NCBI GenBank assembly: GCA_040954595.2
Contig: CM082591.2
Span: 2,021,745 to 2,085,744, forward strand
Direction of reading: 5' to 3'
Length of the DNA: 64,000 nucleotides
Origin: Balanoglossus misakiensis
Lineage: Eukaryota; Animalia; Hemichordata
The position numbers were made by a program, and so were the translations under genes. Position 1 is the stretch's first letter, and every line of letters starts with the position of its first letter. The notes beneath the pieces are model-generated. The model did not search any database. It was not told the DNA's origin and saw only the letters and a list, made by a program, of their open reading frames with translations. This document shows positions 1,663-61,250 of this stretch, one piece after another.

Positions 1663-1794
1663 ATTAGCAGCAACGAGAAACTAATCTTTCTAACCAAACA
1701 GTCGACTCGTCACTCGTTTCAGGTAGTACAGAGAGAAGAGACTTCGGCAAGCGAAAACTTTTGTTTGATGAAAGCGATGATCAGAGCATTGTCT

Positions 1795-4051: not shown

Positions 4052-4502
4052 GTTGTTGTAGAAATGAAGGACGTTCAGGCACTATGACTACAATGATTCG
4101 GATAGGAACGCATACACAGATAATACACGTACGTCTAGAGTCATCTGTATGTACATACACACGTCACCCAGGGCAGGGTTCGCCCGTCTGAGTTGACCAG
4201 TCACAACATTTATTTACGGGTTCGTGAACCCGGTGCGGGGTAGTGCCAACCACTACAGAGCTGACTTGACAAGGCCCTGATGAGGTCACGGCACGTCCAC
4301 TGTTAATATATAACTTTGGCTGTGGCGTCGAAAGCCTGCACGTCACCAGGACCAAGAATGTCCTGTCTACACGTCACGTGACGTTTCAAGACAATCCAGT
4401 ATTCACCTATATTCAAAGTTGTGTACTACTTGGCTGGTAGTTGCAACTGACCTCCTGAAGTACGCGACCTAGATCACACTCCAAGCCCCACAGTTTTCCA
4501 GA

Positions 4503-27400: not shown

Positions 27401-29501
27401 ATTACTTAGTCCTGACAAATGTGACTGCACGAAGAATGCCCAGGCAAGGGTTTTATCTAGTAGTTGTACCCCTGGAGTGGAACTGTTTTTAATCAGAGGA
27501 GTAATATATATGGTATTTATGACATTCCGGGAGACCAGGATTTTATAAAAAAACATTCGCGATACTGTATTAGAAGCTATTCATATTTTCAGCACACAGG
27601 TGGATTTTTGTTGGCGATTCGCGTTTTCAAATGTTCACAGAGACAGGTGAACTAAAAAAAAATTCCACCATTTTCTGAAAAAAGGCAATTTGTGCTGTTC
27701 AGCAGTCAAAAGGCAAACTATGTGGGCGTTCCCTATTGCTACTCGGTTGGGTCAACTGTCACTTGGTGAATCCCCCTTCCGGCTGCTCTTCCCAAGATGC
27801 TAAGCGACAGAAGCCATCATCGTTTGCGCTCCACATCCGCGTCGCTCACCTCCGGGTATGTACGTACTGCAGGTCCATCAATCAATTGTGAGATGTAGGG
27901 TGCATCTTACGCCGGCGGCTATTGGTCCACGGTGACCCCAGCCTGACCTTTCGTTAACCGCGTCCTCAAAATAGAGAGGAGAGGCAACCGAAGACATGGA
28001 TGTGTAATTAATCTTCTCGTCAGCGTTGGAATCGTGTCATTAGAAGGGATATGACCGACCTTGAGGTGGCAAGATAGCTATACGAATTTTCCGTGCCTTT
28101 GTCTTCTAAAGAACTCAAAGCCATGCTAAACATGGATGTGGGCTGAACATGCGCACAACTGGCGTCTTTTCAGCGTAGGAGTTTTAAAATTAAGATGCAA
28201 CAAGCTACGTAATAATTTGATTACTTTTATGAAAATTAGCTTGCGAATTAATTACAGAATTGCAATGTTTTATAAGTCTTCATGAAAATTAGCTTGCGAA
28301 TTATTGATTAAATTGTCACTTTTTAAAATGTACATTTAAGTGAATGTTGAAAATTCTCATATTTGTCCTTGTGCTACATATTCACGAACTAACTTTAGTC
28401 ATGAATCTAGTTTGCTATATTCTGTCACGCTGAATTAATATGCGAAACATGCTTATTAAAAAATAATTTCTTGAAAATACAAACTTATCAACCTCCGCGC
28501 GTTTTCTGAAAATATACATTAATATACAGTCGATGAGTAACTTAATAACTCAAAAAAACTTCAAAACAAACTCTAATGAAAAATAGATAAGACCCGTACG
28601 TACCAATCTCAGAAACGTATACATATCAATTTCAATTAAGTAATGGAAAACGGTAGGTGGTTTCTTGTGAAAAAGGAAGTACTATGATTATATTTAATAT
28701 TTTCTGGTTGTGTAACTCTCGCCCACGCATTATGGTCAGCGGAAAATAACCAGACGTCACAGTTCTAAACTAAGAAATATTCATGTTAGAACGATAAGTT
28801 TATTAATTAGATTTTTCAATCGTGACTGAACTAGCTCCATCTGTTGCAAACGCACATGTCGCCACTGACAGGTGGAAGACATCTGTTTCGGGCGATATAT
28901 AACTACCCGTCAATCGTGTCGAAATGAAATTAAACCAGTTTTGACTTGCTGTAAGCAAATTCCTGACATTTTAGTTCGTGAATTAATCGAATTAGACGGG
29001 AAGATAAGCAAACCCCGTCTTCAATGATAAGATAATATCTAATACCAATTAGTTCACTTTGTCTTATCAATTGAATTAAATCCTGATTGGCACTTCCTGA
29101 TAACAATCCGAAACGTTCCCTTCCAGACTGATTTTTCAAAGACACGATGAAGTTTAGACTGTGAGAGAGAATCGAATTTGTTATTGATGCACCTTAAAAT
29201 CCACTTAAATTGCAATCAATCCAAACTTGATGCGAGATTTATCACTCAATAATTCACAAGAAGGTGGATTCAAATGTGCCAACAAGTGGTACCTTATTTC
29301 AGAAGTGTCGTCAAAGGGTACACATTCTGTGTCAACAACTGGTACTCCCTTTATAGACACAACTCAGTCCTGAACTCAGATTGGAACTATTTCAGTTTGA
29401 ATGTACATTTATATGTTTAGTTTTATGCATCAAACGTTGGCCATTATGTCTCACAAGGCATTCTACCTTCTTTTTTACACCGCAGGTCTTGTAATTTAAA
29501 C

Positions 29502-32500
29502 ATGAATAAGTCACTCATCGTGGCAGTTGTAGTGATAGTCCTGGTTGCCGTCAAACAGAGCTATGGAACACCAATGTAAGTAGTATTCCTAATTCTCACA
29601 CTCGATAAATGTTTGATGTCGAGTATATTTGTTTGCAGGAATAAGAAACACTACTGGATTTCAGCGACATTTTCCGTTTAAAAGCAAAATCATCTATTAC
29701 ATGGTTTCAGGAACTCTTTACTCGTCATGTACTTCTAAACTGCCTTGCCATTGGTTTACAAAGAAAGCTTTTTTTGCAGGAAAAGATCAATCCAATCACT
29801 TAACACCGCACATCAGTCTGGGGCTGTTACTATGGTTACGTTTTGTCAGAGATGAGCATGATAATAAGAGAAAATGCATGATTTGTGGTTTCAGATAACG
29901 AATTATATTCTTCCGCCTAATGTACCGTTTTCTTACAATAGGAAGTACGGAGATATATTTGACATCTTTATCATTCATCAAGTTTTATAAATGACCATGA
30001 TTTATTTCACTTTTAGATAATCAGCACTTATCTATCTGCACCTTCTTGCTAACTCGCAAACTTCAATACACGTGGGCTTCTCTTTATATACACCCACTCC
30101 CATGTAATAAGCTAATTGAAATGCATAACGGCAATCATGTACATGTATTATAATTATGCCAGATGGATCATGTTACAAACTGTCACCATGACATTTGCAT
30201 GGTATTCTTTACGCTAGTATCTATTTCACTTGAAGTAGAATATCGCATGGTAAACATTGTAGACAAACTATAGATATGTGTAATTTAAAGAAAATCAGTT
30301 TGCCTTGTCTTTATTTTATATGATGTAGCAGTAACACACTGCACCACGAATTCTCTCTTCAGATGCACTGAAAACCACTCACAGAATGGTGACCACAGCA
30401 TGGCCCTAAAAGCACCACTATCATTTTTCTCCTTTGGTCGTGGGTGTGCTCATTGAGCATGCGCTAAAATGCACCATGTCCTAATATGGTCAATAGACAT
30501 CACACCGCGCATGCGTTTGAATACATAGTGCTGAGTATTTCCCTAATATGGTCATGCATAAACAGAGAGAAGCGAACTAACGTGGCTGACGCTTCTATGG
30601 CTGCAATGCTTCGTAGAGAACACGCAAGAATGAAACAAGAGGCGTGGCGTAAATGGCTTCAGCAGCTTGGGCAGCGTAGTGATGTTGTGTAAGTAGTCTT
30701 CGAGAGGTCTAAACCAAGGCAAGACAAGATTAAAGATGATATGTCTTCAAAATGACCACAACAGATCTATTAACACAGCTTAAAAACTACACCCGGGACA
30801 AAAATAAAATCCCAATTTTTGTCCATTTTGACCAACCATCTGAATCTGGCTTGTCTTGGCTTCTTCCCGCTTGCTGTCACGTGGCTCGCACGAAAAAATG
30901 CACGCGCATAGGTAGTTTTTGCAGACGACCAAAAGTGAGTGAAATTCATAGTGGCCATCGTTGTTGTGTGTTGACAGAAATAAGAAAAACGTTGCAGATG
31001 CATACTTGTCGTCTCTGATGAGACGAGAAAGCGTGAAAGCTAAAAGGGAGGCGCTCAGAAGATACATACAAAAGTTAATTCATCGTCAACAGATCGGGCA
31101 TGCGCAGAAGAGCGGTACCCAGTAAGTCACAAATCTCGAACCCTGCAAAGTTCACAAATGATCGTTTAACGATGTGTTTTTACGACGTATAAAACGCTAC
31201 TGAAAACATAATTTGGCAAGGAAGGTTGCATTTCGCGGTCACAAATTTAAGAAAGAGCAGCAGGCATCTTCTGTAGAATAGAACATTAATAACTACCGTC
31301 AGTTGAAATCCCTTCCAAGCCATAAGTACTCGTGAATTTTAATTACACTATCATGAATTTGGAACAAATTTTACGGTCGTAAAGTGCAGGGTTATGGGCA
31401 CTGTTACCACCACTATAAGCATTGCATACTGCATGTGGCGGACGTCAGCAGTTTTCGTGTACTCTTTGATGACGTAGACATTCCATGTCAAGCTCAACTG
31501 TCTGTTTCATTATTGTGGCCATCCCTTCGCTTTGACCAAGAAAGATAGGAACATTCAGACCATTTGTCCGTCGCTATTACACGCTCCCTGCGTTCCTGTA
31601 GCTGACCGTATACACCTAGGCGTGCCAATCTATATTATGTATTGATTGTTTTAACGTTTTGCCTCATCACCTTGACAGAGAAAACGCGGGAAAAAATTAT
31701 ATTCAAAACAGTTTCAATCTTAATACAATCTAGTCACATAATGTAATTTCATCTGAGATAAAAATGGTTAAATTTTCTCGACAGATACAACTTCCTAAAA
31801 ACAGACCCCTCCGATTTATTTTCACAGAAGCAAACGCAATGTAGCAGACGCGGCAATGTCTTCATTTTTACAAAACGAAAATAGCAAGCTTCAAACTGCA
31901 CATTTCAGAAGATGGTTACAACATTATATAGCGCAAAATGGCAAAGGGGTTGATAGGTCAACCCGGTCTGTGTAAGTAAAAAAAATAACAGCGATATTCG
32001 TACTCGGCAGTTCATCTTGCTCCGGGTCTTTCCTGTCCACTTACTTAAGATTAACTTCCTATATGTCTTGTCTGTCTACTAACCACTTTTCTGTCCTCTT
32101 GTAAGGATCAAACACATCTGACTGTCCCCTACCTTCGCACATGCGCATCACACCCTCACCCTACTCTTCTTGTGCGCCATATTGAGGCGAACGTGACGTC
32201 ACATAAATTAATTATCCAAGGAACCAATGACACACATGCAAACAAGCATGGCGTCAAACAATCCAAACATGGCGTCACAAACATTAATAATTCCACTTTC
32301 AGTTTCTCCAGGAGATGAAGCAAGAATCAACCATAGAAGCTATCGTCCGCACCAGCAGTTTTTGTGTTCCTCTTTTCAAAAAGCTTTTCCACGATATATT
32401 TCTGCTGTTACAGCAAGTCCAACATCACATTATAAAAATAGTTTCATTATTTAAAATTATATTAGACTTCCGCAATTGCTAAGATTCTAGGCTTCTTGAA

Positions 32501-35500
32501 TAATTCTCGAATTACTTCATTAATGTAAATCATCCCACAGAACCAAGCGAGTTCAATCGGAAGCCCTGATGTCGCAAAAAATGCACGATATGTTAACACA
32601 GATGCGGAGACAGGTCCTTCGAAAGTTTGTTAAAAAATTACAAACCCGGTACGGCGATATGAATCAATATCCCCCGTAAGTAAGTAGTGTGCATGCGCAG
32701 ACGGAATGCGTCGTTTTTTCTCATGCCCGTACTGAAAACATTGCCTGGATTACTTGAGCATGTTTGCATGCGTTAGTTACAAATGATTATCAACACTACA
32801 GGTCTAATTCTGAATAAGCAAGAAAGTTAAAAACCCTAATATCGACGACTGAGGTATCCTAACGCACACTTCCTGTGTATCTTCTATAAGTTTATCGCAC
32901 CGTTGCCCTTTAACTCTAAATGTCTTTGATTTATTGAAATAGCTACTGTTTTCGGTTTCCATTTTTAGTTTCTATTAAAAGCTGTAACTCATCAAGTCAG
33001 CACTTTCAAATGTATTCGATTATCATTATCACTCTAACATCAACTCCACGTAACGTTTTAAATCTCCAGAGGATTTATTGACTTTTTAAATTCTATCGGC
33101 CTTGATTTTCCAAGTAACCATAGAAACGAAGAAAGTGTGGATGAAAATAACTATGTAGAGTAAGTAGTCATGGCAATGTTATAATAGAAATTATTTCGAT
33201 ACCTGAAACTTCTGATAAATTTTCAATATTTTTGTCGGCAAAAGTCACACTCCCTACTTTAGTTTGTCTGTACGACATCACTTACATTTTAGGCACACTA
33301 AATTTACACAACTTTTGTATTCGAAATGTGGCTTGGCTTGATAATACCTATAGACAGTGCGTAAAAAATAGTATTCTATCTTTGTTCCTCTAGAAACTTA
33401 AATAGACTAAATATGTAATAGCGAATCAACTTTAGCGTTAAACATCACAAATTATGCTCGGGTTACTTTCTGTTTGTAAACATTTGTTTGACACACGCAT
33501 GCGCAAATAACATACTTTTCTATGTTACACCACAAATCACGTGTTCATGGACCCACTTCACGTACAGTTATTTACTTCTTTATAGGAATGCGACTGCCGT
33601 TGGTTGACACAAAACACAAATTGTTACCACGGACAGATGGTCGACTGATGATATGCAAATACCATGTATTGCCTTGGTTCAGAAGTTCACTATTAACACT
33701 TACTTCTCTTCTTTCATATGCACTGACGTCACGAATACCCATGATTCTTAGCGGGTTACATTGACAGGCCTAATACATGTTGATAGTTTACATGTATTTA
33801 TACACATTATACTTGAAACATGAAACTTTAAAATCTGCTTTGCCTTTAATGGCAATGAAAATGTTTATTGACTTTAAATATGACAATTAATAAATTATAA
33901 GTAAATTTAGTCACCTTCAGCAGTGGTTTCATATGAATATTATTTCGTCTAATTATATGTCAATATACATATCCCCAGAGAGAATCATGGGTATTGTGAC
34001 TTAATTATTAGAGCATATACTGAGTGCTATTTCACATATGCCACTTCCAGTATTTTCTTCGAGGTGGGTGTGGTTACTATGGTTACAGGTCAGTCGATAA
34101 GGGGGCTGTTTTAACTTCAGTTTCCTGGTTTAATCCATGAAGCCTGATGAAAGATATTTTAAAATTGTGAAACATAGTTTTATATTATTTGAATGTAGTT
34201 GATTAACACGATTGCCTCGGTGGCATGGAGAAAATAAATACCCCAAAACATCAAATTTCGAGTTTTCTGATTCAGTCTGACGCCTACCGTGACACCCACC
34301 TCTAACTCTTCACACTGCATTTGCAGTACAGTCGACAGAGATTTACATGTTCTTTCTGAGTAATTCTACCTGTCTCTATCTCCTTTTCTTCCTTGGTGTC
34401 TCACATGATGAGATTCTTCGCAGTAACTGTCTTTCCCGGGACAGTTGATGAGTGCATTCTTACATCATTAACACCTGTCTACACATAAAATGCAAATTCT
34501 CCTGATGTTCTACTCTTATTTGCATATCACCTCACAATCTCCGTCACTTCTCAGTGCTGTTACTAGTATACCCGTTGGTTTATCGCATCATCTTCAAGCT
34601 TACATTTCCTCGTGTATAATGACACTTACTTTGACCACACTTGTGGAGAAACACACACCTTTCTCTCATGCGATTCTTATATACATTGGCCATGGTAATA
34701 CTAGACAATGTTTTGCTGTCCACAACATTAGGGCAGTAGACCTATCAACACTTTAAAAAGAATTAAGGCATTAACTTAGAGGCACACATTTCTGTCTATA
34801 CTATCATACACTTCTTGCATTTATCATTAGTTTTTGTTCGTCACAGGGAGAAAAGAACAATGGCGGACGCCCTTAACTCACAAATCATGTCACAAGGAGC
34901 GTCCAATCTAAGGGGGCAGGCTTTCATGAAATTATTGCAGAACCTACGAAAACAATATGGCGACTTGACTGTCAGAGCCCCGCAGTAAGTGTCGATTCAA
35001 GTATTCTGTCGTGTGAGAAAGAGTGATGGCCAGGCGACAGCGTGGAATCAATCGTAGAAGCCCCTGACGTATCTCAATTTTGTCTCCAAGTGTTAATGTT
35101 TACAGATCACACGAATCTTCTTACTATGCTCTTTTGACATTTTACAATCACGATTATGCCGTAGGTTTGTCTGGCAGATGTTAAAATAGCTCCTGGTCCT
35201 GTCCACCATCAGAAAATAAACTAAGACACCGTGACGCTTGTGGACCAGCGGCTATTGTTTGAGAAATTCATCAAACCCATCTGGTCAGTTGATTTGAATG
35301 GCGCATTAAACAATTTACATTGAAGAAAGGCGAGCTCCTCGTTTAAAAAGGGAGAATGTAACTGATGGGGAATTCAGTTAAATTTGCCAATTGGTATTAT
35401 ATTTATAATAAACATCCTGAATGCGGTAACTGTTCTAGATAACCGCGAAGATTATGGGGTAACCTTGACTGAAAGATCAAGACTTCTTGATTAAGATAAG

Positions 35501-37253
35501 AGTCGATGGAGAAGTCTTAGATAAAGTGTATTTATTGTCTTTTGGGATTGACTGTTTCCGCTTGACATTAAATATTTTTTTTTCAGGAGCAAGCGCGTGA
35601 CCGCAGATGCATATATGAATTCTCAACTAAGAAAACAGTATTTTGAGAGCAAAGCCTCGGCACTTAGGGAAGCTCTCCAAGCTTTACAACGCGGTAAAAG
35701 AACCGAAGACGACGCCGATGAAATGTAAGTTCACTGGAGGTCACGTGTCATGTGATTATCGTCAATGCTTCTCTAACTACGTAGGAAATATATACCTGCA
35801 TACCGTGGGAATTAGACGGCATTACAGCAAGCCCCCACGCTCCAAGCTGTGTCGTGATTCGAACAAAGTGAGCGACCGGCAGAAAACTAGATTCACTATT
35901 TCCCTAGGGAAACGGCCTTCCCCCGTCGCTACAAATTGATGGAATTTATGCAAATTATCAACAGAATCGATTGAGGATCGGTGGACCAACTCATGACTGA
36001 ATTTCTCGAACGCACCACATTTGGAGTTACGAGATATGACGTCATAGCTTTAATCTTTGCCGTACCAGTCAATGGCATCGTGAACGGTTGACCTCCTACC
36101 AAGCAGAGGTCATAGGTTCTTCCAAAATCGATCCATTAATTCGACGAAAGTCGTGGTCGTGCGGCGAAATGATCACAGCATGTATAAAGCATGCTCCGTT
36201 TAGGCCAAAGTTTGTTCTCGCTCAGCGCAAGTCGTAATGTTTAACGTCAATGGGTTGAATTCAATCAAACGCTATTTAAAACAATTCGTATATTTTTCCT
36301 TTCGTAAACGACTCATTTGACACAAACGGATACGCAAACATGGAATGAATTTGATCAGTTTCCGGGTTTATCTGGTCCCTGTATTCACATAGCCAATCAC
36401 AAGCCACCTATGAAAATATGCAAATTGTTCAGATGGTAAATCTGTGTTCAGATACAATCACAATTGTTCCATACGGACAGGTGTCTCACCATAATTGTTA
36501 TATAATAGATTCCATTGACCTTTTATCACAAGCATTACATCAACTTGCTTTACTGTTTTTATTCATTAAAATCACTGCTTCACTTTCACATTCAGACCAC
36601 TAAATGCACGCCACCAGCTTTTGCTAATTTCATGATGTCACCTTTTTTGTTGTGTATAATAACTGGAATTTCGTTAGCCCCTGCCCTTTGTTTGTTTTTC
36701 TCTTGTGTTGTCTATGTCGTGCTGCACCGTCTCTGGCCAGCAGTCCTTAACCGTGGTATTGTGACATCATCGCCGGCAACCCGATACGTGAACGCGTCCA
36801 TCATGATCACAGTATAGGAAATGCGTATTAGATAACATTATTAAGGTGGATGTTAAAACCCTAAATTGGTCAATTTTATGTTAAATTATAATCGAGGATA
36901 ATAGTCGCCTGCCATTTAGAATTTTTCACTTTGCACGCTTTTCTGATGCTGCTGTTAAAATTTCCTAAATGCACCACCAGTAGAACCATTTCCTGTTTAC
37001 ATATTACGCTAGCACGTGTTCACAGTTCCCGCCTTGTTTGCTACTTCATGAAGGCTGAATCATGTCGCATTCATGTCTGCCGATTTTTGACACATTTGAT
37101 TATGCATATTTCACACGTAGTGAGAAGAGGAACGCCAGCGACGCTTTACTTTCGACCTTGCTGAGTAAATCGGTCAGATCAAAACTCAGAGATGCAGCTA
37201 GACAAGCTATACTGTCCAGATCAGTGTCGTTGAGGGCGGGCAGAACCTCATAG
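29502..37253 (+). CDS. Secreted multi-peptide prohormone (342 aa): signal peptide plus 7 exon-encoded PTH/secretin-glucagon-superfamily-like peptides
   Basis: Coding exons 29502-29575 (MNKSLIVAVVVIVLVAVKQSYGTP, signal peptide), 30566-30688, 30978-31121, 31828-31971, 32541-32675, 34847-34984, 35587-35724, 37121-37253 (stop). All 7 donors are GTAAGT, all introns are phase 2, the six internal exons are multiples of 3 (123/144/144/135/138/138 nt), and the total is 1029 nt with no stop. Each peptide exon starts x-K-R (one x-K-K) followed by a homologous x-x-[AS]-[DE]-A peptide. The gene structure is seen directly; the family assignment is inferred. Confidence 0.9.
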
Positions 37254-40200
37254 AAGAAGGTATGGGTCCCGTTCACACACAAAAACATGGCGAGACGTTT
37301 TCAGTGGTTCAATCACTCCACGTGACATTTTACGTCATCACCACGTGTTTCACGTCAACGTTCGCGTGACGCGTCTGTGAATAGTGCCAGAAAATGCCGC
37401 GAAATGTGATCATTGGTGTTCTCTTGTCTCAGTCGTTGTAAATCAAATCAGCATGTATCATATATCTTAACGATCATTATGTCTACATCTTTGTGATTTA
37501 TGTTACCGTACCATACCATCATGCATCGTGAACCACAAGTTGTATTTTTATGTTTCTACCTTGGCTTGAAATGTTTGATCTACAAGCACAATAATAAAAC
37601 TTGCTCGTGTAAGGTATATTCGTCTCAGATAATACATTTTCTCAATTAAGATTTTTTCCTATATTACTTTTATAGGAACTAGGAACGCCATAGAAAGTAT
37701 TATTGTGCTCCTGTAGGACATGAGGAAGACAATGGAATTACGAGCAGAATTATATTTTTGATGTCAAAATATGAGAAAAAATTCTTTCCTTTGTAATTGC
37801 TACATTGTAGTGCTGCCATGACAACAAAGTGTCACCTGTTGGTCAAACCTCCAAAAGTTATTCACAAATGCCTTCCAAAGACATGTAAATTATTTCCGGT
37901 TGCTAATCTCCAAATTTCGCCATTTTGTAGGCATAACCGCCTTTCAAACACTGTAATTTATTTCCGTAAATAAAACAAGGTTTTCCGTGTGTTTAAACGT
38001 CTCTGGGTAGCCTGTCTCACAGAGAAATATGACCTTTAATGCAAATTACTGACCTCTGTTGATCAAAGGGAAATAGCCGTTAGTTTTTGAAACACGTGAT
38101 TACGTCCCCTTTGGGACCTGGACGGAATTTAGACATTTCAAGTGGTAAATTTAAATACCATAGTTGCTTACTGTTTACGTGTGTCTCTAATATAGAATGA
38201 TCTGCACTCTAATTGATGATTTGTGGCTATTCATTTGCAGCCAATATCAACTTGAGATTTTGGATGTGCGTTTCCTGTAGATATGCATCTATATGCCTTG
38301 TCGCGCTTCACCGAATATAGGAATACCTAAATAATAGTTTACGCCTTCAGGCCAATTTTACAATTCCGGTCCATTTTAGTACAGTTTTGACCATTCATTT
38401 GATGAAAAGACTTGGCAAAATTTCAACTAGTGATACGTTCGTTGACAATTATAATTCAAACATACATGAAAGTGGCAACGGGCTTTGTCTAGAAAATAGG
38501 GTATATGCTCAGCAGTCGTTCAGTGATTAAATAATGTGATGTCCATCAATATTTTGAAGAAGTCAGTAAGGTTTCACGAATGTTTAAAATGGTAATGTTA
38601 TTAATGTATGCAAAATACGAGGCCGTTTAGAGTGTCGTGTGCAACGCTCGTGACCTCTAGAGTGCCGTGCGCAACGCACATGGCCGACTAAAGTTTCTTG
38701 CGCAAAATGACGAACTACGTTTACGTTCTCATCATTACTAATTCTACATGTAGTTATGTATTTACCAATATTTTCATCAGTGGCCAATTTACCAAATATT
38801 GGAACTCATACGACCGACGTCTTTCAAGGTCAAAAATGTAATTTTGCACTAATAGTCTAGACAAGCTAGAAGATACACGCCACCAAGTTTAACAGAAATA
38901 GATAAAGTGGCTTGAAAACATGCACGTGAAAATAGTAGCATTCGATAGCTCTGCCATTTTGGTAGCTGATTCATTGATTATGAAGACATTTATTCTCTCT
39001 TTGTAAAGGTATCTTTAACATGGAATTATCACTTCATACATATCACATCGTTGTCGAATGTATTTTGTGCAATAAAATATTTTCAGCCGAACCACCGTAG
39101 ACTCATAGTCTTTCTCGACCGAACAAGAAGGCTTAAAGGTTCTATTATCCGGGCTCTGTAAGGGACTGTTCATTTAAAATTCTTGGACGGATTTTTATTA
39201 TCCATACCACTCACTGTGTCCGGTTTACTCAGTGGTAAACCGGATTGTTACAGCAACAAAGACTAACATATAATTGACAAGGAGGGCAACAGGGGTGAAA
39301 AATTATTTTAAACAAGGAGAGAGAAACGAAATCCCTTCACGGAAAAAAGAAGCCGTAAATGGGTTTCCAAGGCAACACTATACGTTGTGGGCTTACCTGA
39401 CACTTCATTTCAAGAGTGTGTTTTCTGTGGCCTATCCATCCATCCATCGATGACGTTGTGGCACCCCAACGATGCAATTCAGCACTTTTTTCGGATTGCG
39501 TGATTTCTGGCAGCATTCAGCAGTTTCACGACCACTTGGAAACGAACACAAAACTCCTTCCGTATTTACGCGTATTGGCAGTCTTCCTTGAGAAAAGTCC
39601 ACCTCAGTTTCCACGTCAAAAATGGCAATGAGACCCTCGATCATACTGGTACACGTAGAGCGACTCCGCAATGGTGCATAGGGCTTCGCTTTCTCCAACA
39701 AAATGAAGGAAGCGTGCTCCGTGTGGAAATCTGAGAACACCTGTTCACATTTTCAACCAATCAGAAATAGCTTTATAAAATTCAAATTAACAAGGTGTTT
39801 GGACATGTCACCACTTAGAATAATTATACGTTATATAAAAAACATCTGCCGTAGAGGGTGCCCTTGCGCCCACATCCTGCGGAGGCTGGCGCATTTCCAC
39901 ACAGAGAAAATAACGAGAAACAGTGCAATGTAAAATCATGCCAAATTTAATGCTATAAAACCCTATCTTTCTAAACGTATATCTCGTTGCTAGGATACAG
40001 TTGTACAATATGTATAAACCCACCACCTCAATTGTTCTGGTGTATCAACATTTCGATCCGCTAAGCGTCATTCAACAGACAAAATCGGTCACTTGGATAG
40101 AAAATAAACTACATGTACATGCCAAAAGAACAAGTCAACATTCGAAAACTCTGTTAATGTTTGTGACACACAGAGCCTTGTCAATCATTGACAGAGTGAG

Positions 40201-44524: not shown

Positions 44525-47500
44525 TCAGTGATAATGTACAATTTCATTGGGTCGTTTCTTCCTCTTGTTCAGCCTCAAGGGTTGATCAAGTGATGAGTCG
44601 ACGTAATCTGACACGTATTTTTCCAACAGCCTTGTCAGATATTTGTCTAGCCTCTTGCCAGCTTTGCCCACTGCTGAATCCGGCTGAAAAATAAGAAATG
44701 AAAATTACTTCAAATGATGTCTGAGACTTTCATGAGTACGATTTGCTTCTTGGGTTTCCAAGAACTTTCTTACGGGGAGTGTTATACACTGAAGGCCTAC
44801 TGTGGTCTCTGTACTGACAAAAAGACATTGAAACAACACTTTTCTAGCGAGTTGTCCACAATGAAAATCTTGGATTTTTTTCATCTTGTTTTAAAGTGTT
44901 GTAGGAAAATTCTTAAATACTTACTGCATTGAAGAGGGCACAGTTTGAAAACACCAGTCGACAGTCTGATATGAAATCTTCTATATTCTCATAGCCATCG
45001 AGTTTACATTTGATTGTACTTAGATCCATTGGATTAGCTACTATCTTGTAGTAATTTGGGACCTGAAAACAGAGAAAAATCCAGTGCCATTACTCTCATA
45101 CCTGCTACAAATCCTACAAGCTTCCACAACTGCTGAAGGAATAACCAAGAATGTTTGGGTAAAAACGGTGTACTATGGTACTTTTCTTACCGATTTCGGA
45201 ACAGGCTCGTGGAACGGTGGGCTTGCCTTGTGACAGAACAGCTCCAGTAGAATCCTCCGACATACCTGAAAGAGTGCGCATACCATGCACATCAGTGTCA
45301 AGTTGGCATGGGGCGTATCATGCCTGCTACTCTAGTAGCAGTCTGAGTGTACATGTATAAAGCAGAGTGACTTTCTAGCACTAACGTTTCAAGAAACAGA
45401 AGTACAAAGTGTGGGTGCCTTACCTTCCTTTCAAATTCATCTAATTCAGAACAACGTTTCCTCTTTAGGGACTCGTCACCATCAGTATCGTGTTTCACGT
45501 CTGTCGGTATGACCTCGCATAAACCACAAACCCATGTGTCACTGGAAAATAAAGTAAAAGAAGTCATATTAGAACACACCACTTAATTTTTTTTAAAGGG
45601 CAACGATCGTCTTATGCGCATGTGCCAAACCAGAGACTCTGGGGTAACAAAAATTGTATACAGTCAATGAATAAGGCAGTGTGCTGTCCTATCAACAGAC
45701 AAGATGGCGGCCACCATAGGAAGAGAATTCAAAATTTATCTTACATGTACCTGGGTGTGGAAGTCAGAGATGGAATATGACACTGTAAGTGGAAGACTTT
45801 CGGACATCTCTCGCAGCAGAGAAGATCACCGCCGTTATGACAACAAGCGCAGTAGTCCTCGCTTTCATCGTCGTTCTCTCTTCTCTCTGTAGACGCGAGA
45901 GGCGGTTCTGGAGAGTCCGGTCTCTTGTCGTCGCCATCAACGTGCCCCTGACCTCTTCCACTCTTGTGTGATTGTTCAGCTGCCCCACTTGCCATGTTGA
46001 GGAGTTCCTGAAATATCCACAAACATCAAAGCATAAAATGCCAGGTTTCATGGAAGTTAGGCTCCAGTACTAGTACCTCATGTCTACAGCAAGTCACTGT
46101 TTATTATACTTCTACCACCATTTATACAAACAAAACAGCTTTCAATGTGTAATGCGGATGTACAACTTACAGGAAACAATGAGAAAGGATCATCTTCTCC
46201 CGGCATACTGTTGCTCCGTTTGAAGGTAAAATCCAGAGGAGCTGTATCCTTGTCTTCCGTGGGTGCTCCTCCACTGCACGCACTCCTCTCTCCCGAGACT
46301 CCTGGTTCCTGCTTGATCCGTACACCACTGGTGCTGGGTTCCGGAGTCACACTACCCCTGCTTTCACTGCAAGGAAAGGCAAGACACACTTAAGTAATTG
46401 CGATCAGAGTATAGATATCTTGCAACATTCATGCTATTCTTGGGTCGGCTGCACTGAACTCTGATTGACCTATACAGAACTTTGACTTACCAAGAACTTG
46501 TATTGCTGGATGGTCTTGAACTGCCTGTGTGGTGAACCCCAGTGGTGTCCACTTGACCTGACCCGCCCCCACTCCCTGACGGAGAAGCGTCTTTCCGAGC
46601 CCCCTTTTCGAAACTGCACGATGGTTTCTCCTGGGGGGACTCTGGTTCACTCTTAATTTCCGTTTTGGCAGAAGTGATGGTGTCCTGCCGTCCCTGGCCG
46701 AAGGGTACGGTCACTGGCATGGATGGGGGACTTTGAGGTGTTTGACGATCCCCTCCACTGGCACTGCTCACTTGGTTGTTGTTCCCCTGAATGGGCGGAA
46801 TGTTGGTGAACACCGACTCCTGCAGATCGCGCACCGAGGGACTCAGCTGGCGTAGGGTGCTCGGCGATAGACGCGTCAGGTTGCCGAAGGAAACCACGTT
46901 GGAGATGACTGGGTTTCCTTGCGGGGCGTTCTGTTGCGACGGCTTCGGCGCGATCAGCCTGGGATGTTTAGGTTGCATTGGCATGTGCGAGAGTCTGGGT
47001 GGCTCCTTCTTGATGCTGGCATGCTGCATCATCTGCTGGGCGAACTGATTGAACTGCATTCTTTGCTGCGGGGTAATCGGTGCTGACATGGAGTTGGGTT
47101 GTATCTGCATGGTACCCGATGCACCTGTTCGCTGCTGCTGCTGTCTTTGATTTGCCAGTTGCTGGAGGGTGATCTTCTGCTGTTGTTGTTGCTGATGCTG
47201 CAGTTGTTGTTGCTGCTGTGGGCTCATTTTGTGCTGCGGATAGGGACCCTGGCCATACTGCGGCGGAGTTGACTGCTGCTGCGGCTGCCTGCCCAGGAAA
47301 GCCTGCCTGGGCGCCTGCTGGATCGCCTGATTCAACTGCTGCACCACGCCGCTAGGGTTGTTCCCTTGCCCCGAGGCGTCGCTGATCAACAGCACGCCAA
47401 ACTTAGAGATCTGCTTGGTGGCATTGGTCATGTCGAACAGGAACTTCACGTCCATGCCGAAGATCGGCGTCTTTATACAAGGAATCCGTAGCACATTGAT

Positions 47501-50500
47501 GAGCTGTTGGAGAATGGTCTTCTTGCTGTACAACAGTGCTGCGTTACTGCCCCCGGCGGAGGCCTTCTTCGTAAAGTTCGTACAATGATCCAGCAACTTC
47601 CCGAGCTGCTGGACTTCTTGGGCCTGTACTTCCAGACGCTTCTTTTTAATAGCACACGTCTCTTTCAAGTCTGCTAGTAACCTCTTGGCCCGCCTGTTCA
47701 CTTCATTTATCAGTGTCAACATAAATAACCTGATATCCTGGCTAGTTTTGTTTTCCAAATCGGCAATTTGTTTTTGTTTCTCCTTAATCCTTTGAAGAGC
47801 AGTCCCTGTGTAATTTTTTTTCTCTTGCAGTTTCTGTAGAAAGGCTGACATTGTTCCCTTTTGCCTCGCTGCAGCCTCGTTGACAAATTGGTACCTGGAA
47901 ATGAACAACAAAGAGACAAATTCACCTTTTGGCCACTATATACTCCGAGCAATTCATCAGAATGGATATGTTGGCAAGACACCAGGAAATCGGCAATAGG
48001 GTTAAAGGTCAAAAGCTAGAGATTTTATACACAGTGAGTTTATATTTCCTGAAGTGCAAGACATGCCATATGTGTACTTAAAACACTGAGACTTCCCCTT
48101 AAAGCCCCTCCCAAATATATAAATGTATGTGATAATGAGGTGCTATATCGGCTAACACAGACCAGCTTGGGTTAGCCTGGTTGGAACTGATCTGTCTGTA
48201 CACAGTTTATGTTGATTGCCAATGAAGTACTTACTTGTGTTCTTTGTGCCCTTGAAGTTGGCAGTCTCGACACGTCAGTTTATCGCACGTTTCACAGTAC
48301 AGCTTCAATGGCTCATGCTTGTGCAAAGGACACATTAACTGTCTCTCCCGGAAACTCCCCGGGCTGATTGCGGTTCCTTTCTGCGCAGCCTCTGCCGAGT
48401 CTTTCGGCTGAATCACGTGGTCCTTCGTCACCCGGACTCGCTGGTGCGCCTGGACGCAGGCGTCGCAGAGCCATTCCGAGCAGTCGTCGCAGTACGACGT
48501 GGCAGTGGCATTGTCGTCGCAGCTGGTACACTTCGTCTCTGACTCTGTAGTACTTGTAGTGGTGTTCTCTCCGCTATGGGTGATCTCGTCCAACATGAAG
48601 TAATTATCGATCAAACAATCCGGATGCCTGACCTCTTGCTTGCAAGTGGGACATCGGACTACTGCAATAAAAAACACCAAAGAATGGTGAACATGTGCAC
48701 TTCTCAAAGACCTCAACACAAACTGGCCTTAGGTCAGCCTACAGCTGACCCAGTTGGAAGCTTAGTTCTGCACTCTACTGTACTGCGATGTACCCAGGAT
48801 AGTCATACAATGCTGAGAAAAAAAAAATACATATACATGTAGGGTACATGGTTACAGGTCATAGACAGTACGGAGTCATTTAATAGAGACGGTGTTACAA
48901 TTTTTCAGTACTTTTGTTCAGTGTAGCAAATATATGTATATTTCATTGTAGCAAATATGATTCAGTGTAGCAAATACATTTCAGTGTAGCAATACAACTT
49001 CCTGTTGTTCTCTTTACAGCACAGGAATATACCCAGGGTTTTTTTCTTGTCACCACAGCCAGTATGTGTAACTACCATTGTGACTTTTGACAAGTGAATT
49101 CAAGCCTTGACTGCAATTCAATTCTGACTGCATACAATGATTCATAATGTTTGATATGTGGCAGAAATGAACTGAAGTAGATACACAAAACTAAAATGCT
49201 GTTACAAGCTTGTGAAACCAGACAATTGTTATTCTCTTAAAACCGAAAACAGTCCATATGTTGTCTGACAATAATTCCAAACTGACCTGACGTCTCAGAT
49301 TAACTACATTTTTCAAAGTATCTGATCAGACCCCATAACAACATTATCATATTTCTGCCCATCAAACCAATGGCAGTTTGTCAAAGGATGGACATTTTTA
49401 TTAAGCATATTGGAATTATTTTGGAACAAATAATTAGGTCAGACTTCTGTTAAAGAGGTCCTCCCTGAAATTAAATTTGGTTGTGTACGCAATCATGGTG
49501 GGCGTACAGTGTGAACAAGCCATGATGTTGTATGTGAGCCGATGACTGGGCCCTGGTTGAATCCTCGAATGTATGTACAGTTTTACGAGTCTCCAAATGG
49601 TCACGAATTAAAATATGGGAGGAATATGAGGGCATGTTGGTACATGTCGGTACTTATTTTAGCTCGACATAATTGGACAGCAAGAGAAACCCAACCAGAT
49701 AAATTTAATTGTTTGTGTAGCTTATTAATTCTGTATGCTAATGATGTGTGCTACATTTGTCGACTTTAGTCAAGGGTTAGCCCTATCTCGCTGGATTCCA
49801 GACTGTTGCAATGCATGTACATGCATGCCACACTATGCCATGCACAACAATGCACATAATACATAATATGTGGCCATACACAGTAGTATTTATAATGCAA
49901 TGAATCTTGTCGCACTGCCACGGCAACCATGGTATTCTTCAGAACAAGTCAACCGTCTCCATGACAACTGATTGTTTCTCGCTTAAACATGGTCGCCATG
50001 ACAATCTTTCTACAGTTATATAACACTTAAACAGACACGCCCACAATGCTTTGAGTTGAAGCCCTAGAACTATTTTGTTTAATTTTGAAAAACATGGCGA
50101 AAACAGCATCTTCTGAATACATGTAACTATTTTACGTCCAATCTTCCTAACCTTGACTCACACCTGCAATATTTTTTTATATACCGGTAACTACTAGAAG
50201 GCTAATTGACAATGTTAACTACATTTTCATTTCTGACTGTGTGGGTTAAATTTATCCCCAACTGGGAATTGTCGCTTTCACTTCCAGGTATGTATGTGTG
50301 TGGGGCACCTGATCTTGTCCATTTCATTTGATGCTTTGTAACCCTGAGAGCCGAATGACCAAAACAGTGCGCATGCCTTGAAACAGTCAACAATAATCCA
50401 TGGACAAAGTTGTTCGAATCGTCCCAGAAACTTACTGAAATCCCACTATCTTGTGGGAAAGTCATTCGCACGTGGGGGTGATGAGAAAGGGGCGGGACAA

Positions 50501-51085
50501 CAACTTGCAATTGACAAATGTTGTCACGCTGACAGAAATAAACAAGAGTTCACGGTGTGAATTTAAATAACAAAAGTTCAATCACTGAGTCAGTGTCACA
50601 ACAACACACTGCTGAGGTTTGGTAGCTCGATGTTTTGCCTTGTTTTGTGTTTATATATAGACGACAAAATCTGATTTCGCCTTCTAACACCCAAACCAAG
50701 GCAAAACCTCGAGCTACAGCAACCAACATGACTGATCCATATTGCTTCGATCGCTGGTGTATCAAGAAAATACACCGCATCGCTCATATGAACTGGACTG
50801 CAGGGAATCCGTGTAACACCATGGTGGATCTTGACGAGTATAAGAAAATGCTGGTGCGGTTACAATGAAGTGCTACGCTACGTGACTCTACACTAGAGTA
50901 GGGACTTCAATCACTCGGTATTTACCTCCATCGTTCCCTGGTGTTATACACTCCTTACAGAACGTATGCAAACAGGGCAGAAGTTTCGGCCGCCTGACCC
51001 CGAAACCGTTCTTGCAGACAGCACACACAGTCTGGGGCTGTTCCACACTATCCCCGTTCACGGTGGTACTTGCTTCCGAACTCAT
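44525..51085 (-). CDS. TRIM33: TIF1-family E3 ligase / chromatin reader (TRIM24/28/33/66-like; RING, B-box1, B-box2, coiled coil, PHD, bromodomain)
   Basis: [22 protein letters not shown] (51085-50926) completed by VRCPTC; B-boxes [25 protein letters not shown] and [24 protein letters not shown] (48661-48235); coiled coil plus Q-rich linker (~47894-46490); [33 protein letters not shown] (~46010-45750); bromodomain exons ~45540-44525 ending [12 protein letters not shown]...PNEIVHYH*. The symbol denotes the closest family member; likely co-orthologous to all vertebrate TIF1 genes. Confidence 0.93.
48917..48995. repeat. Short intronic tandem repeat (ttcagtgtagcaaata-like x4)
   Basis: Four near-identical copies visible in TIF1 intron 1. 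Confidence 0.7.
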
Positions 51086-54685: not shown

Positions 54686-57600
54686 TTACTTGATGTCATA
54701 GATATGCACAGCTCCAGACAGTCTAGTTCCCTGGTTACTGTGGGTAGCGGACACAATTAAATTGTTGCCCTGTCGAAAAGCAAATAATAAACAGATTCAG
54801 AAATCATCTGTAGAGATAAATTCGTCTTCTCTATTGCTGGATCTTTGATTTTCTCAATCTACATACAAGGTCATAATCGAACGTATAACTTTAACCTCAG
54901 ATATTCTTACCTGCGAGTATCTGAGAATAGCTATGTTGCTACCAAACCTACTGCCAGACTGCAAGAAATAGAAACAAAATAATATTACCTTCAATTCTTT
55001 TAAATAATATAAACAGTCACATTTTAGTATGCATTCACACTTTCAGTGTAATCACTATATAAAATCTCTAAATGTTTCATCAAAGTGATCTCAAACCCAC
55101 ATCCAACCCCCAATTCTGACCTTCATGAAAATATAAAATCACACAATTACCTCATCTGTTCCATATTCTGCAGTAGCCTGAAAATTACCGCGAGAGAATA
55201 GTAATTATCACAATAATATGACATGTTTTATTTGCCAATATTTTGTTTTGATGTATAAGAAACAGAAATTATGTAATCAATTAACTATGCTGCACCATTT
55301 AAGGTATATAAAACACAATGTTTTACCTTGAGTGCTGGACATGGTATCACAGTTTCATGGGAGCCACATTTGTTAGTGACATCCCCACTAGGCAAAGAGC
55401 TGCCACCTTGAAACATATACACACGGCCTTCTTCGCCTATAAAGTAAATACATAAATAATAAATAAATAAATATGTGTGACTTCAGAACCAGTTGGTGTA
55501 TCGACATATTCATGCAAGTTATATTAATTCATACCTGACGAGTTACAGTATTATGTTTTTGAATTCTTAAGCCGACAGTTAGACTTGAACATTTCTGATC
55601 AAATGATTTTAGTGACTTACCACCATACAATTCCTCTGTCAGATCATCTATACGAAATGGGGCACCTATAAGGATGTCATCTGAAATGAAAATTACAGTA
55701 ACGAATTTTAAATCACAAAAATACCAGTTGGCAAATATGGACATACACTCAAATACATGACAATTTACACACAAACCTTTGACAGTTTACACACATATGT
55801 ATGACACATACACACATACCTATGTCATCACCAGTTACATCTTCCATCACCACCTTTCCTCCAAACCTTGCGTAGCTTCTGTCACCACTGAATGTGGCAA
55901 ATGGCTCCGGTGTTGAAGGTTTCAACAGAGAGGAAACATTGTACAGAAAGACTTTTCCGGCTTGGTTGAATTCGACTGGGATGTTGTCAATCAGTTTGCC
56001 TGGCACACCTGAGTTAACACAAAAAGTACTAGTTTATGTTGAAAATTTCGATTTTCAAAAATTGCATCAATATCCTGAATTTTTTATGGAATAGCAAAAA
56101 ATTACAGATAGTGACCTTAAAAATACTTACCTACAGTGTCAGCAGATACTGCTAACATGCTTTCGCGTCCAACATATGGACGTCCAGCTGTTGCAGAGGA
56201 ACCGAGTTTACTGAACGATTTGACACCAGGCATACTGTGAATCGCTTTGACAGGCATCTTGCCATTGGTGAAATCAAAAACGTCGATTTTGCCGACGCTC
56301 TGTGTGTCATTCTTACTGTAGCTGCAGTTTTTACTGAAATGGAAAAAGCGCGCGCTCAAGAATTTGTGTGTAAAAGAGCAAGATGTCTTGTCAAATGAGC
56401 TTGCCTTTGTGACCTCTTGTGTGTGAATTTTGCAGTTAATCATACCACGGAATGCAATCCTTTCTGTTTGATAAACGTGCATAGAATGACAATATGGTGA
56501 ATAAAAATATTTGAAATACTTCTTTTAATGTCACTTACAGAGCGCATATTCTGTATGTCGGCGACGAGACCAGCAACCACACAGACTGATGCTTGGCGTC
56601 TGTGTTGACAGTCTCAACACTGATGTCATAACCAAACCATTCATAATACTGCAATATAAACAGATCAAGGTTCAATTGTCATTTGCTGTTTTACCTGAAC
56701 ATCAGTTTTTTCCTATATTACTGGTCTCTGCTATTTTATTTCTCACTTACCTGGTTGCCATACAAAGTGTGATTAGAATCTTGGACTTGTAGTGTGTGTA
56801 CACCTGAAAATAGGATCAGAAATAAGTCATTTAAGCTTCTTTTTCTGAACCCAACCCCATTATTGATGATGATAATGATGTTGATGGTAGTAGTGGTAAT
56901 AACAAATATGTTAACTTGGCAAAACAATGATTACCAATGGATTGCACCAGAATTTAATACACAGAATCTGAATAAACATTAGAGAATGTCATCACTGACC
57001 TTGCAGACTACTGTTTGCAAAAAACACATTAACCATTCCCATCTGAGGTCCTTTCTTGAAATGTGCAAACGGTGATCCGATCACCAAATCATCAAATCCA
57101 TCGTGGTTGAGATCTCCGACTGACAGAGACACACCCAGGTTACAATATGTGATGTGCTAAAACAGCGGAAGAAAAAATGGGGAAATTAACAGACAAATAC
57201 ACAATTAGATGTCAACTCAATGTTCTTTGGGGTCAAGTAACATTGGGGTAGTCACACAAGTGTCAGACTAAGCAACATGTTATACCTATTCCTGGTATTT
57301 TTGATCTGTTAGTAAACTTACAAATTGGATGTATTAAAAGATATTTGCAAGTATTCTATTTTTAATTTCATACCTCACACTGTATTGTCAAGTCAGGTTT
57401 CGCTTTCAGATTTCCTGTGGATCCAAAGTAGACATAGACTTCTCCCTACGTTGATAATTGAGGTCAAAGGTTAATTCCATATAAGGTAATCTCCTAGACT
57501 GTCAAACAAATGGGGGGCAATAGCTGACAGTTATATGCATTGTGCATTCTAATATATATTGAATTTACATAAAAATGTCATATATTATATAATCACATAA

Positions 57601-60600: not shown

Positions 60601-61250
60601 TCTTGATGTTTGTCTATTAACTGAAAGAAAATCAATCCTTTAATTAAATATTGTTACATTCAAAAGTTAGCATGTTGACCAAGAGAGTGTATAATATAAT
60701 TCATACTTGATCGGATCATGAAAAAAATATGGATGTCAGACAATAACTTAATACAATGTCACATAGATCTGGGTATGTTAACTTCATGCAGACTTACTTG
60801 TCGGTAATCAACATCAGCAGATTTGTGTTGGAAGAACTCTGCCGCGCGATGGCCTAAAAACAAGCAAGACATATACACCTTTAAGATACGTAGCCTGTAC
60901 CCCTCCCCCCCCCCCCCAACAACCTACAGAAGGGGGCGTGGCACTGATAGGGCTATATACGGAATCGCAGCAAATATCATACATGCCTAGCTAAGTAGCT
61001 GTACTTTGTCCTGTGCGACAGAGCTGTGTTACGTTGTTACAGGATAGGCTAGACTGGCTATAAGGCTGCGACAGGCTTAGGCCAACCCGGTAACAACAAC
61101 AACAACACATCCCTGCCGCGACGCGACGCGACGCAATTGACTCGATTCTTATATTTACAAACCGATTTCTATGTGTGTGATTCCGCCACAGCAGTCAGTT
61201 TCAGCTGTAAATATCGACAGCACAAGCACTGCAAGGATTTCCGGCCTCAT
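54686..61250 (-). CDS. GPLD1: Phosphatidylinositol-glycan-specific phospholipase D (GPI-PLD)
   Basis: Signal peptide plus CGGITHIEI (exon from 61250), HRAAEF, AFKAGNPFPD, FLLGYVCHDVADISWH, WYIPVDDL, LYPTYSAKSPFLLEQYQSFFLGGVDDMAVWTQNIW; FG-GAP repeats (GDINNDNFLDLIIGAPG, DLNADGFNDLVVSAP, DLNHDGFDDLVIGSP); C-terminus TRLSGAVHIYDIK*. More than 20 small exons, including microexons at 59160-59133 and 55178-55152. Confidence 0.95.

Follow-up and report, generated by a model that had tools for sequence, protein, structure and literature searches.

Which ancient hormone receptor would be activated by the peptides encoded in a split gene of the acorn worm Balanoglossus misakiensis? The gene lies in a 64,000-nucleotide stretch of DNA (the window), and it bears also on the origin of the secretin-glucagon/PTH ligands. 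Ambulacrarians carry receptors of both the PDF and the PTH/PACAP/glucagon clades, and for the latter no ligand is known in the literature examined (PMC5627052). The seven peptides announced in a preliminary description were all found at 29502-37253, on the + strand and in the order given there.

The precursor gene and its seven peptides

Joining the 8 coding exons (29502-37253, + strand) yields 342 codons, the sole stop being terminal. The seven introns are uniformly phase 2, start at a GTAAG donor and end at an AG acceptor, and the length of each of the six internal exons is a multiple of 3. An additional exon upstream of the first coding exon is implied. The features are as follows.

29486..29575, + strand: first coding exon (acceptor end 29485, ATG and start of the CDS at 29502, phase-2 donor), encoding a predicted signal peptide and two pro-residues
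30566..30688, + strand: peptide exon P1; KR at 30570-30575, peptide from 30576
30978..31121, + strand: peptide exon P2; KK at 30982-30987, peptide from 30988
31828..31971, + strand: peptide exon P3; KR at 31832-31837, Gly-Lys as a possible amidation site
32541..32675, + strand: peptide exon P4; KR at 32545-32550, C-terminus Tyr-Gly-Asp
34847..34984, + strand: peptide exon P5; KR at 34851-34856, Tyr-Gly-Asp followed by a conserved tail
35587..35724, + strand: peptide exon P6; KR at 35591-35596, Gly-Lys-Arg amidation site and acidic spacer
37121..37253, + strand: terminal peptide exon P7; KR at 37125-37130, C-terminus Ala-Gly-Arg, stop at 37251-37253
37593..37598, + strand: candidate polyadenylation signal, 3' of P7

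A second candidate polyadenylation signal is found at 37969; this and the listed one were called from sequence only. A candidate alternative last exon lies at 37676.

The locus had been described as a prohormone of several peptides, each on an exon of its own, and the 342-aa ORF bears this out, featuring a hydrophobic leader and seven homologous peptides marked by dibasic sites. The signal peptide is predicted from hydropathy (9-residue peak of 4.0, residues 5-14). The first coding exon is 71-83% identical to its counterpart in all 16 orthologue isoforms, and the dibasic site preceding the conserved peptide, present in 7/7 units, is retained in orthologues. Pairwise scores of P1-P7, which count the common dibasic site in, were equalled by no more than 2 of 1000 shuffles in 16 of the 21 pairs, and by 11-64 of 1000 in the other 5. 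The motif K[RK]x(2,3)[AS][DE]A, derived from the finding itself and hence a post hoc test, has 7 matches when all six frames of the window are scanned, every one of them within the peptide exons; shuffles of the region contained none in 285 of 300 cases, and one in the remaining 15. An independent HMM, made from 13 peptides belonging to three other species, was used to score 2913 stop-to-stop segments of the window. Seven matched at E values of 1.4e-12 to 3.7e-6, and these are exactly the P1-P7 exons; no eighth copy was detected in the window, the next-best segment having an E of 0.18.

Residues 1-33 of the window peptides are free of Pro and, in 7/7, of Cys. P1 is modelled as an unbroken helix (mean pLDDT 84.5), and the hydrophobic moment, weak in P7 (0.14), measures 0.55-0.81 across P1-P6; both results agree with the earlier claim of class B1-like helical peptides. 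The Gly-Lys-Arg amidation site is complete in P6 only, and is replaced by Gly-Lys in P3, Gly-Arg in P7, and Gly-Asp in P4 and P5.

Class B1 receptors bind their ligands according to a two-domain model. The leader would route the precursor into the secretory pathway, where prohormone convertases would cleave after the KR or KK found at the start of each peptide exon. P6 would be amidated, P3 and P7 probably too, and P4 and P5 may be released as longer, non-amidated forms extending as far as the following dibasic site. Of each peptide, the C-terminal amphipathic helix would bind the receptor extracellular domain, leaving the conserved [AS][DE]A segment at the N-terminus to set off Gs/cAMP signalling.

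Orthologues in other acorn worms

RefSeq orthologues, annotated as 'uncharacterized', were identified in three acorn worms, Ptychodera flava (XP_070562802.1 plus 8 isoforms), Glandiceps (G. talaboti LOC144448420) and Saccoglossus (S. kowalevskii LOC100373259). The assignment to an invertebrate deuterostome is thus correct, the host being an acorn worm with acorn worm orthologues; calling the gene 'hidden' was an overstatement, as automated annotation models it in the three relatives and merely leaves it unnamed. Leader and peptide order are the same as in the window. RefSeq isoforms of the three relatives have equivalent junctions, and some skip single peptide exons. With all introns in phase 2, peptide exons can be gained by duplication, lost, or skipped without a change of frame, which accounts for the different number of peptides per precursor (7 here, 6 in P. 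flava, 4 in Glandiceps and 4 in Saccoglossus). The locus is an uncharacterized gene in three genomes, in which peptide number varies by in-frame exon gain, loss or skipping. Exon skipping would give cells a means of changing the set of peptides released. TRIM33 is the gene that follows here, and in P. flava the following block of accessions is again TRIM33; no link to the echinoderm or amphioxus neighbourhoods was established.

The single units are conserved to different extents. P1 and P2 are identical to their P. flava orthologues at 15/33 and 21/33 residues, and are missing from 4/9 and 1/9 P. flava isoforms, respectively. The P. flava orthologue of P3 is shorter by three residues. P4 is found in 0/9 P. 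flava isoforms, and has an orthologue in 2/3 Glandiceps isoforms (13/33 identity). P5 is identical to its counterparts at 31/33 residues in P. flava and 19/33 in Saccoglossus. P6 (18-23/33) and P7 (19-30/33) have orthologues in all three relatives, P7 being missing from 2/9 P. flava and 2/4 Saccoglossus isoforms. In Glandiceps, the first peptide is acidic and divergent. The hemichordate set includes 21 peptides; the family profile was built without this acidic peptide and without the shorter P3 of P. flava.

Profile searches retrieved hemichordates only. Four matches at E <=0.001 were found among 1.84 billion, 7 among 7999 scored candidates, and 5 among 7892 candidates, with no echinoderm protein in any of the three; the word filter missed even Saccoglossus in the last of these, and the blanks are accordingly weak.

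The units carry net charges of +1 to +6, form amphipathic helices and differ in copy number between species, features which would suit secreted cationic effectors (antimicrobial or mucus defence) rather than receptor ligands. Conservation, however, is strongest in the N-terminal acid-containing motif, P5-P7 orthologues hold 52-61% identity between families, amidation sites are present, and the Atlas neighbours are neuropeptide precursors (generic ones, at 0.84-0.91, of no settled family). An effector function is accordingly regarded as quite improbable.

Likeness to PDF-type precursors

The closest described family is the echinoderm 'PDF-type', overlooked in the preliminary description although PDF was listed there as a rival. 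The best single match is that between the brittle-star PDF-type peptide 1 (Am_cipu) and P5, identical at 11/34 residues, ungapped, terminal Tyr-Gly included (BLOSUM62 score 39 by hand, one residue off KR). With 7 peptides and 4 offsets to choose the best score from, the corresponding P is 3e-6 against a general background and 2.5e-4 against a background with the composition of these peptides, both before correction for the about a dozen peptides tried. O. victoriae PDF1 is identical to P5 at 10/34 residues (score 29), and sea-cucumber PDF2 to the Saccoglossus first peptide at 8/32, ungapped.

Gene layouts are also alike. The CDS of the sea-cucumber PDF-type gene is divided into exons spanning 1-77, 78-143, 144-272 and 273-402, with introns phase 2 in 3/3; as in the window, no two peptides lie on one exon, and a codon is split one residue before the first KR. 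Vertebrate class B ligand genes have phase-2 introns as well, and this layout therefore does not separate the families. In echinoderm PDF-type precursors, as in this one, the penultimate peptide ends at Gly-Lys-Arg, a short acidic spacer follows, and the last peptide ends in Ala-Gly-Arg. Peptides of about 35 residues and in-frame exon skipping are further common traits (ArPDFP, AjPDFP1a/b and ophiuroid PDF; PMC4772807, PMC6586643, PMC5627052). In contrast, the acidic residue is followed by Asn-Asp-Phe in echinoderms and by Ala-Leu/Tyr-Met in hemichordates, and P4 and P5, unlike the echinoderm peptides, retain the Gly and miss the next Lys-Arg. Echinoderm precursors hold two peptides rather than seven, and two peptides per precursor was one of three arguments for the PDF-type assignment (PMC4772807). 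The numbers found in hemichordates (7 here, 4-6 in relatives) do not agree with it and are read as an expansion, which makes the precursor a variant, not a plain member. The gene is likely orthologous to the ambulacrarian 'PDF-type' precursors, in an expanded hemichordate form, and class B1 GPCR ligands are its predicted products. A Saccoglossus PDF precursor has been cited before, as one peptide, and may correspond to LOC100373259; the EST in question is GI:187067819. Literature searches on the Saccoglossus gene (locus, accessions, two peptide motifs) returned a GI number in PMC4772807 only, and the hemichordate motifs were absent from the supplementary files of three papers (for PMC11521371, all but one file).

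Our main reading, held with about even confidence, is that of a prohormone orthologous to the echinoderm 'PDF-type', whose products would act most likely on the PDF-receptor clade; PDF-type receptors are the predicted target at an even chance, PTH/PACAP/glucagon-clade receptors at an appreciable, lesser one. Two PDF-clade entries of Saccoglossus, g36147 and g36154, are found in a receptor tree (PMC11521371). Sea-cucumber PDF receptors respond to calcitonin-type peptides (PMC12638048), and no report of echinoderm PDF-type peptides activating PDF receptors was found in the literature examined, where the name 'PDF-type' was given to the echinoderm peptides from sequence alone.

A possible likeness extends to protostomes. 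The N-termini of insect PDF and Aplysia cerebrin resemble the window peptides in [AS][DE]-x-L and a serine-leucine-leucine core. The Ala-Gly-basic end of P7, unique to it among the window peptides, is found in 4/6 protostome PDF/cerebrin rows, and PDF, PDH and cerebrin, like P7, sit at the precursor end. Silkworm PDF scores 8 in the N-block, above the amphioxus peptides (1, -9, -4). This N-block resemblance to protostome PDF depends on a gap or offset picked after the fact. However, all six protostome precursors compared release a single peptide of 17-18 residues with a Leu/Met-Pro turn and without a long second helix, and the window peptides, at about double that length, have a Pro nowhere in residues 1-33. 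The Pfam Pigment_DH model matched 0/7 window peptides and 0/6 orthologues at E up to 10.

Possible PACAP/glucagon, PTH and CRH relatives

Alternatively, the PTH/PACAP/glucagon-clade (cluster B) receptor of ambulacrarians could have its missing ligands in these peptides, and the gene could be a pro-orthologue of amphioxus PACAP/GCG, probably together with the echinoderm 'PDF-type' gene. This we consider possible, at clearly less than even probability. Such a relationship is a broader form of the idea advanced in the preliminary description, and is compatible with cross-activation of PDF receptors.

Amphioxus PACAP/GCG peptides a, b and c can be aligned with the window peptides in one register. 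Counting from the dibasic site, residue 4 is acidic and residue 9 is serine, Met or Leu occupies position 11 in 3/3, and the Arg-x-x-hydrophobic-Gln helix comes three residues sooner. Exon duplication gave rise to the amphioxus gene, which is alternatively spliced (PMC9049855) and encodes several peptides of 31-32 residues with a C-terminal helix (PMC9049855, PMC7251081). In length and absence of Pro, the window peptides fit better here than among protostome PDFs. Asp3 is present in echinoderm PDF1 peptides, as is Phe6, a named PACAP binding residue (PMC7251081). No ligand was found for the PTH-type receptor of ambulacrarians (PMC5627052), and a Saccoglossus PTH_GCG_PACAP entry, g9124, is present in the receptor tree. 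The amphioxus precursor differs in having three peptides, three residues shorter and two of them on one exon, and in that its receptor is known. The matches, moreover, require a gap and reside mostly in the helix block (23/24 points for peptide a). The Phe6-equivalent column is filled by Met, Leu or Asn in hemichordate peptides; at the Phe column of amphioxus peptide b, Phe is absent in hemichordates and has a positive score in 0/19 profile rows. A hemichordate PACAP-like gene was not found by other investigators using vertebrate-like baits (PMC7251081). The 7 ungapped identities between starfish PDF1 and amphioxus PACAP/GCGa were rejected, the helix register being one turn off the published echinoderm alignment.

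Scored against the family profile, PACAP/GCGa of amphioxus (24) ranks above every echinoderm peptide tried (16, 13, 12, 8, -4 and below -20, the last two being starfish PDF-type peptides); amphioxus b and c score 7 and 13. True members scored without their own group fall at 25-86, with the exception of the acidic Glandiceps peptide (-8), and only amphioxus peptide a comes near this range; under the null, a score of 25 has a P of 1.3e-4 or 4.7e-3. PTH (about 11) and GHRH (about 13) do no better than echinoderm peptides. All cross-phylum scores were obtained by hand on short amphipathic helices, for which a register shift of one turn can yield false matches.

No Pfam hormone model matched the 7 peptides and 6 orthologues, only unrelated weak matches being returned, and PDB profile searches gave unrelated helices and no hormone chain. 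Hormone_2 and PDB hormone structures, which secretin/PACAP/glucagon members would be expected to match, gave no match, nor did Parathyroid/TIP39. For secretin/PACAP/glucagon membership this test is weak, because amphioxus members are <17% identical to PACAP (PMC7251081). Vertebrate PTH/PTHrP/TIP39 and secretin-glucagon peptides are similar in length class, in the acidic residue near the N-terminus and in the amphipathic C-terminal helix, and their precursors also have an exon per peptide (PMC7251081), but they show no profile match to the window peptides. Of the earlier PTH/secretin-glucagon label, the fit of amphioxus PACAP/GCG peptides to the profile in one register is retained, and a Pfam or PDB hormone match is missing. 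The PTH case built on P4 is not supported, as P4 and PTH share 5/29 ungapped identities, at least 6 being reached by 30% of random peptides, and the PTH-like L15, M18 and R20 are not conserved, the Glandiceps orthologue having I, R and L instead.

CRH/DH44-type or calcitonin-type ligands are a very improbable identity for the peptides. Echinoderm PDF-type precursors were originally classed as CRH-type, multi-copy ELH/DH44 precursors occur in lophotrochozoans (PMC5627052), and DH31 is among the Atlas feature matches at 0.90, a lead only. Starfish CRH, however, scores about -40 on the profile by hand, the lack of Cys in residues 1-33 of all seven peptides leaves no N-terminal disulfide ring, Pfam CRF, ELH and calcitonin models gave no match, and Saccoglossus CRH-type and calcitonin genes have been reported already.

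Ambulacrarian 'PDF-type' genes and amphioxus PACAP/GCG may, as a rather tentative proposal, constitute one orthology group bridged by this precursor, whose peptides would be the ligands sought for the ambulacrarian PTH/PACAP/glucagon receptor, an orphan, with P7 possibly still serving PDF receptors. A single modular, exon-skipping gene would then feed two class B1 receptor clades, and the proglucagon-style peptide-per-exon precursor would date to the deuterostome ancestor. The seven peptides, with four orthologue groups conserved across three acorn worm families, resemble both sides.

The precursor gene and its acorn worm orthologues

Eight predicted coding exons at 29502–37253 (+), a signal-peptide exon followed by seven peptide exons, make up the precursor gene. 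Joined by their splice signals, they yield 342 codons closed by a single terminal stop. All introns (7/7) feature a GTAAG donor, an AG acceptor and phase 2, and all internal exons (6/6) measure a multiple of three. The seven peptides listed in the preliminary description (P1 to P7, one per exon) are present in the window as stated. The seven units are homologous to one another: in shuffle tests, 16 of the 21 peptide pairs were equalled by 2 or fewer of 1000 shuffles, the remaining five by 11 to 64. When the 2913 segments of the window were scanned with a profile made from 13 peptides of other species, all peptides of this window excluded, seven were picked, at E 1.4e-12 to 3.7e-6, and the segment ranked after them reached 0.18. 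Because the seven are just P1 to P7, the set is regarded as real and complete within the window. The leader is hydrophobic (hydropathy peak 4.0). The signal-peptide exon (29502–29575) is 71–83% identical across four species, above most peptide exons, and seven residues at the leader end are invariant in all four.

Profile-search matches were restricted to the acorn worms Ptychodera flava, Glandiceps talaboti and Saccoglossus kowalevskii. The gene is annotated, without a name, in three species, its RefSeq isoforms (9, 3 and 4, respectively) all being called 'uncharacterized'; we infer that these database models rest on transcripts. Precursors carry 7 peptides in the window, 6 in P. flava, 4 in Glandiceps and 4 in Saccoglossus, and orthologous peptides share 13 to 31 of 33 residues. 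Single units are dropped in P. flava isoforms (P1 in 4/9, P2 in 1/9, P7 in 2/9, P4 in 9/9), P4 is carried by 2 of the 3 Glandiceps isoforms, and P7 by 2 of the 4 Saccoglossus isoforms. The P7 exon may serve as one of two alternative last exons, as P7-less isoforms with short alternative ends are found in relatives (P. flava 2/9, Saccoglossus 2/4). Downstream of P7, the window features a pyrimidine-rich acceptor at 37676 (+), which, joined to the P6 donor, is predicted to end the protein two codons later, and AATAAA motifs at 37593 and 37969 (+).

No description of a hemichordate precursor with four to seven peptides was found in the literature searched, chiefly the text and some supplements of open-access papers. 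A Saccoglossus 'PDF-type precursor' (GI:187067819), cited in PMC4772807, may correspond to the Saccoglossus orthologue of the window gene.

Predicted processing of the peptides

Every peptide exon starts with KR or KK. C-terminal sites vary, Gly-Lys-Arg being found in P6 only, Gly-Lys in P3 and Gly-Arg in P7; Saccoglossus P7 ends in a bare terminal Gly. The ends of P4 (32650–32675) and P5 (34956–34984) feature Gly-Asp, and then a tail kept in relatives. This Gly occupies the position amidated in brittle-star PDF1, whereas in P4, P5 and their relatives Asp and the conserved tail come next, which suggests C-terminally extended mature forms. Judging from these Gly-basic or Gly-Asp ends, P6 is predicted to be amidated, P3 and P7 are probably amidated, and P4 and P5 would be released as longer free acids. 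Most peptides contain internal dibasic pairs, at which convertases could cut.

P1 was modelled by AlphaFold2 as a single helix (mean pLDDT 84.5, pTM 0.44; weak evidence for so short a peptide). Residues 21–31 are amphipathic in P1 to P6 (0.55–0.81), not in P7 (0.14). Class B1 ligands combine an N-terminal activation segment and a C-terminal docking helix; the conserved N-terminal segment and the C-terminal helix of the window peptides would play the same roles. With all introns in phase 2, each exon is a frame-neutral cassette, which explains both copy-number changes and isoforms.

Family and receptor

No Pfam hormone family was found for the peptides (0/7) or their orthologues (0/6), and PDB profile searches gave no hormone-family match. 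Atlas matches were generic neuropeptide precursors, among which DH31 (0.90) and PDH (0.89) served as leads. As libraries leave the family undecided, published peptides were compared by hand, with a matrix and null tables set in scripts beforehand. The family profile, made from hemichordate peptides, combines an N-block and a helix block. Scored with their own group left out, these peptides reached 25–86 in 20 of 21 cases; in the null, scores of at least 25 occur at 1.3e-4 or 4.7e-3, and of at least 10 at 5e-3 or 7e-2, depending on background. Amphioxus PACAP/GCG a, c and b scored 24, 13 and 7 (PMC9049855), brittle-star PDF1 16 in O. victoriae and 13 in the Am_cipu row (PMC5627052), sea-cucumber PDF1 and PDF2 12 and 8 (PMC6586643), and starfish PDF1, PDF2 and CRH −4, below −20 and about −40 (PMC4772807). 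GHRH and PTH scored about 13 and about 11, with letters taken from the preliminary description except in the last columns. The acidic first peptide of Glandiceps (P0012, residues 38–75) fits the profile poorly (score −8), and by eye is like starfish PDF2.

The strongest pairwise match, aligned by hand, was brittle-star PDF1 with P5 (ungapped, 11/34 identical, BLOSUM62 39; P 3e-6 or 2.5e-4, uncorrected for the roughly twelve peptides compared). The nearest relatives thus differ by measure, amphioxus PACAP/GCG a by profile and brittle-star PDF1 by pairwise score. In the same literature, chiefly the text and some supplements of open-access papers, no paper was found to connect the PDF-type peptides of echinoderms with the PACAP/GCG peptides of amphioxus. 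The likeness of P4 to PTH, from which a PTH/glucagon-type assignment had been partly argued, does not hold: the 5/29 identities are at chance level, and 3 of the 5 residues are changed in the Glandiceps orthologue.

Gene structure favours the two-peptide echinoderm PDF-type gene as orthologue. According to PMC6586643, the sea-cucumber gene has phase 2 in 3/3 introns, each of its peptides has a separate exon, and exons are skipped in frame. Its first coding exon measures 77 bases (74 in the window gene), and both genes split a codon one residue before the first KR; the third sea-cucumber intron lies farther from KR than in the window gene. Echinoderm and window precursors are also alike at the C-terminal end (penultimate peptide with Gly-Lys-Arg, last peptide Ala-Gly-Arg). 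Vertebrate proglucagon, VIP, PACAP, PTH and calcitonin genes have phase 2 introns too, so phase 2 marks the class, not the family.

The chances that P1 to P7 target PDF-clade receptors are about even. The PDF name carried by the echinoderm family (PMC4772807) was counted in favour, as were an N-terminus resembling those of insect PDF and cerebrin, and an end of the Ala-Gly-basic type (sequences from PMC5627052); PDF-clade receptors exist in Saccoglossus, according to receptor labels in the tree text of PMC11521371. A PTH/PACAP/glucagon-clade receptor is a plausible, less probable target, consistent with peptide length, the missing PDF proline turn, the register shared with amphioxus PACAP/GCG, Asp3/Phe6 in echinoderm PDF1 peptides, and a receptor of this clade without ligand (PMC5627052; tree text of PMC11521371). 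As to PDF receptors, those of the sea cucumber respond to calcitonin-type peptides (PMC12638048), and no receptor test of echinoderm PDF-type peptides was found in the portions of the literature examined.

Neighbouring genes

Other features of the window

227–1680 (−): homeobox gene (Pfam Homeodomain), probably paired-class
2696–5461 (one per strand): a divergently oriented pair of class I methyltransferase genes
44528–51085 (−): TRIM33/TIF1 orthologue (B-box, PHD), from tblastn pieces; nearest gene detected beyond the 3' end of the precursor gene, in tail-to-tail orientation
55700–60700 (−): exons of an FG-GAP repeat protein, presumably GPI-phospholipase D-like
62891–63187 (+): ORF, the end of which, to us, recalls a LINE reverse transcriptase C-terminus

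The window TRIM33/TIF1 shares 89% identity with that of P. flava over 143 residues; the values for Glandiceps and Saccoglossus are 73% and 71%. By these identities the window belongs to a ptychoderid-like acorn worm. TRIM33 accessions come right after those of the precursor in P. flava and are separated from them by 560 numbers in Glandiceps, the contigs of the two genes being equal in length in both species; in Saccoglossus the two genes reside on different contigs.
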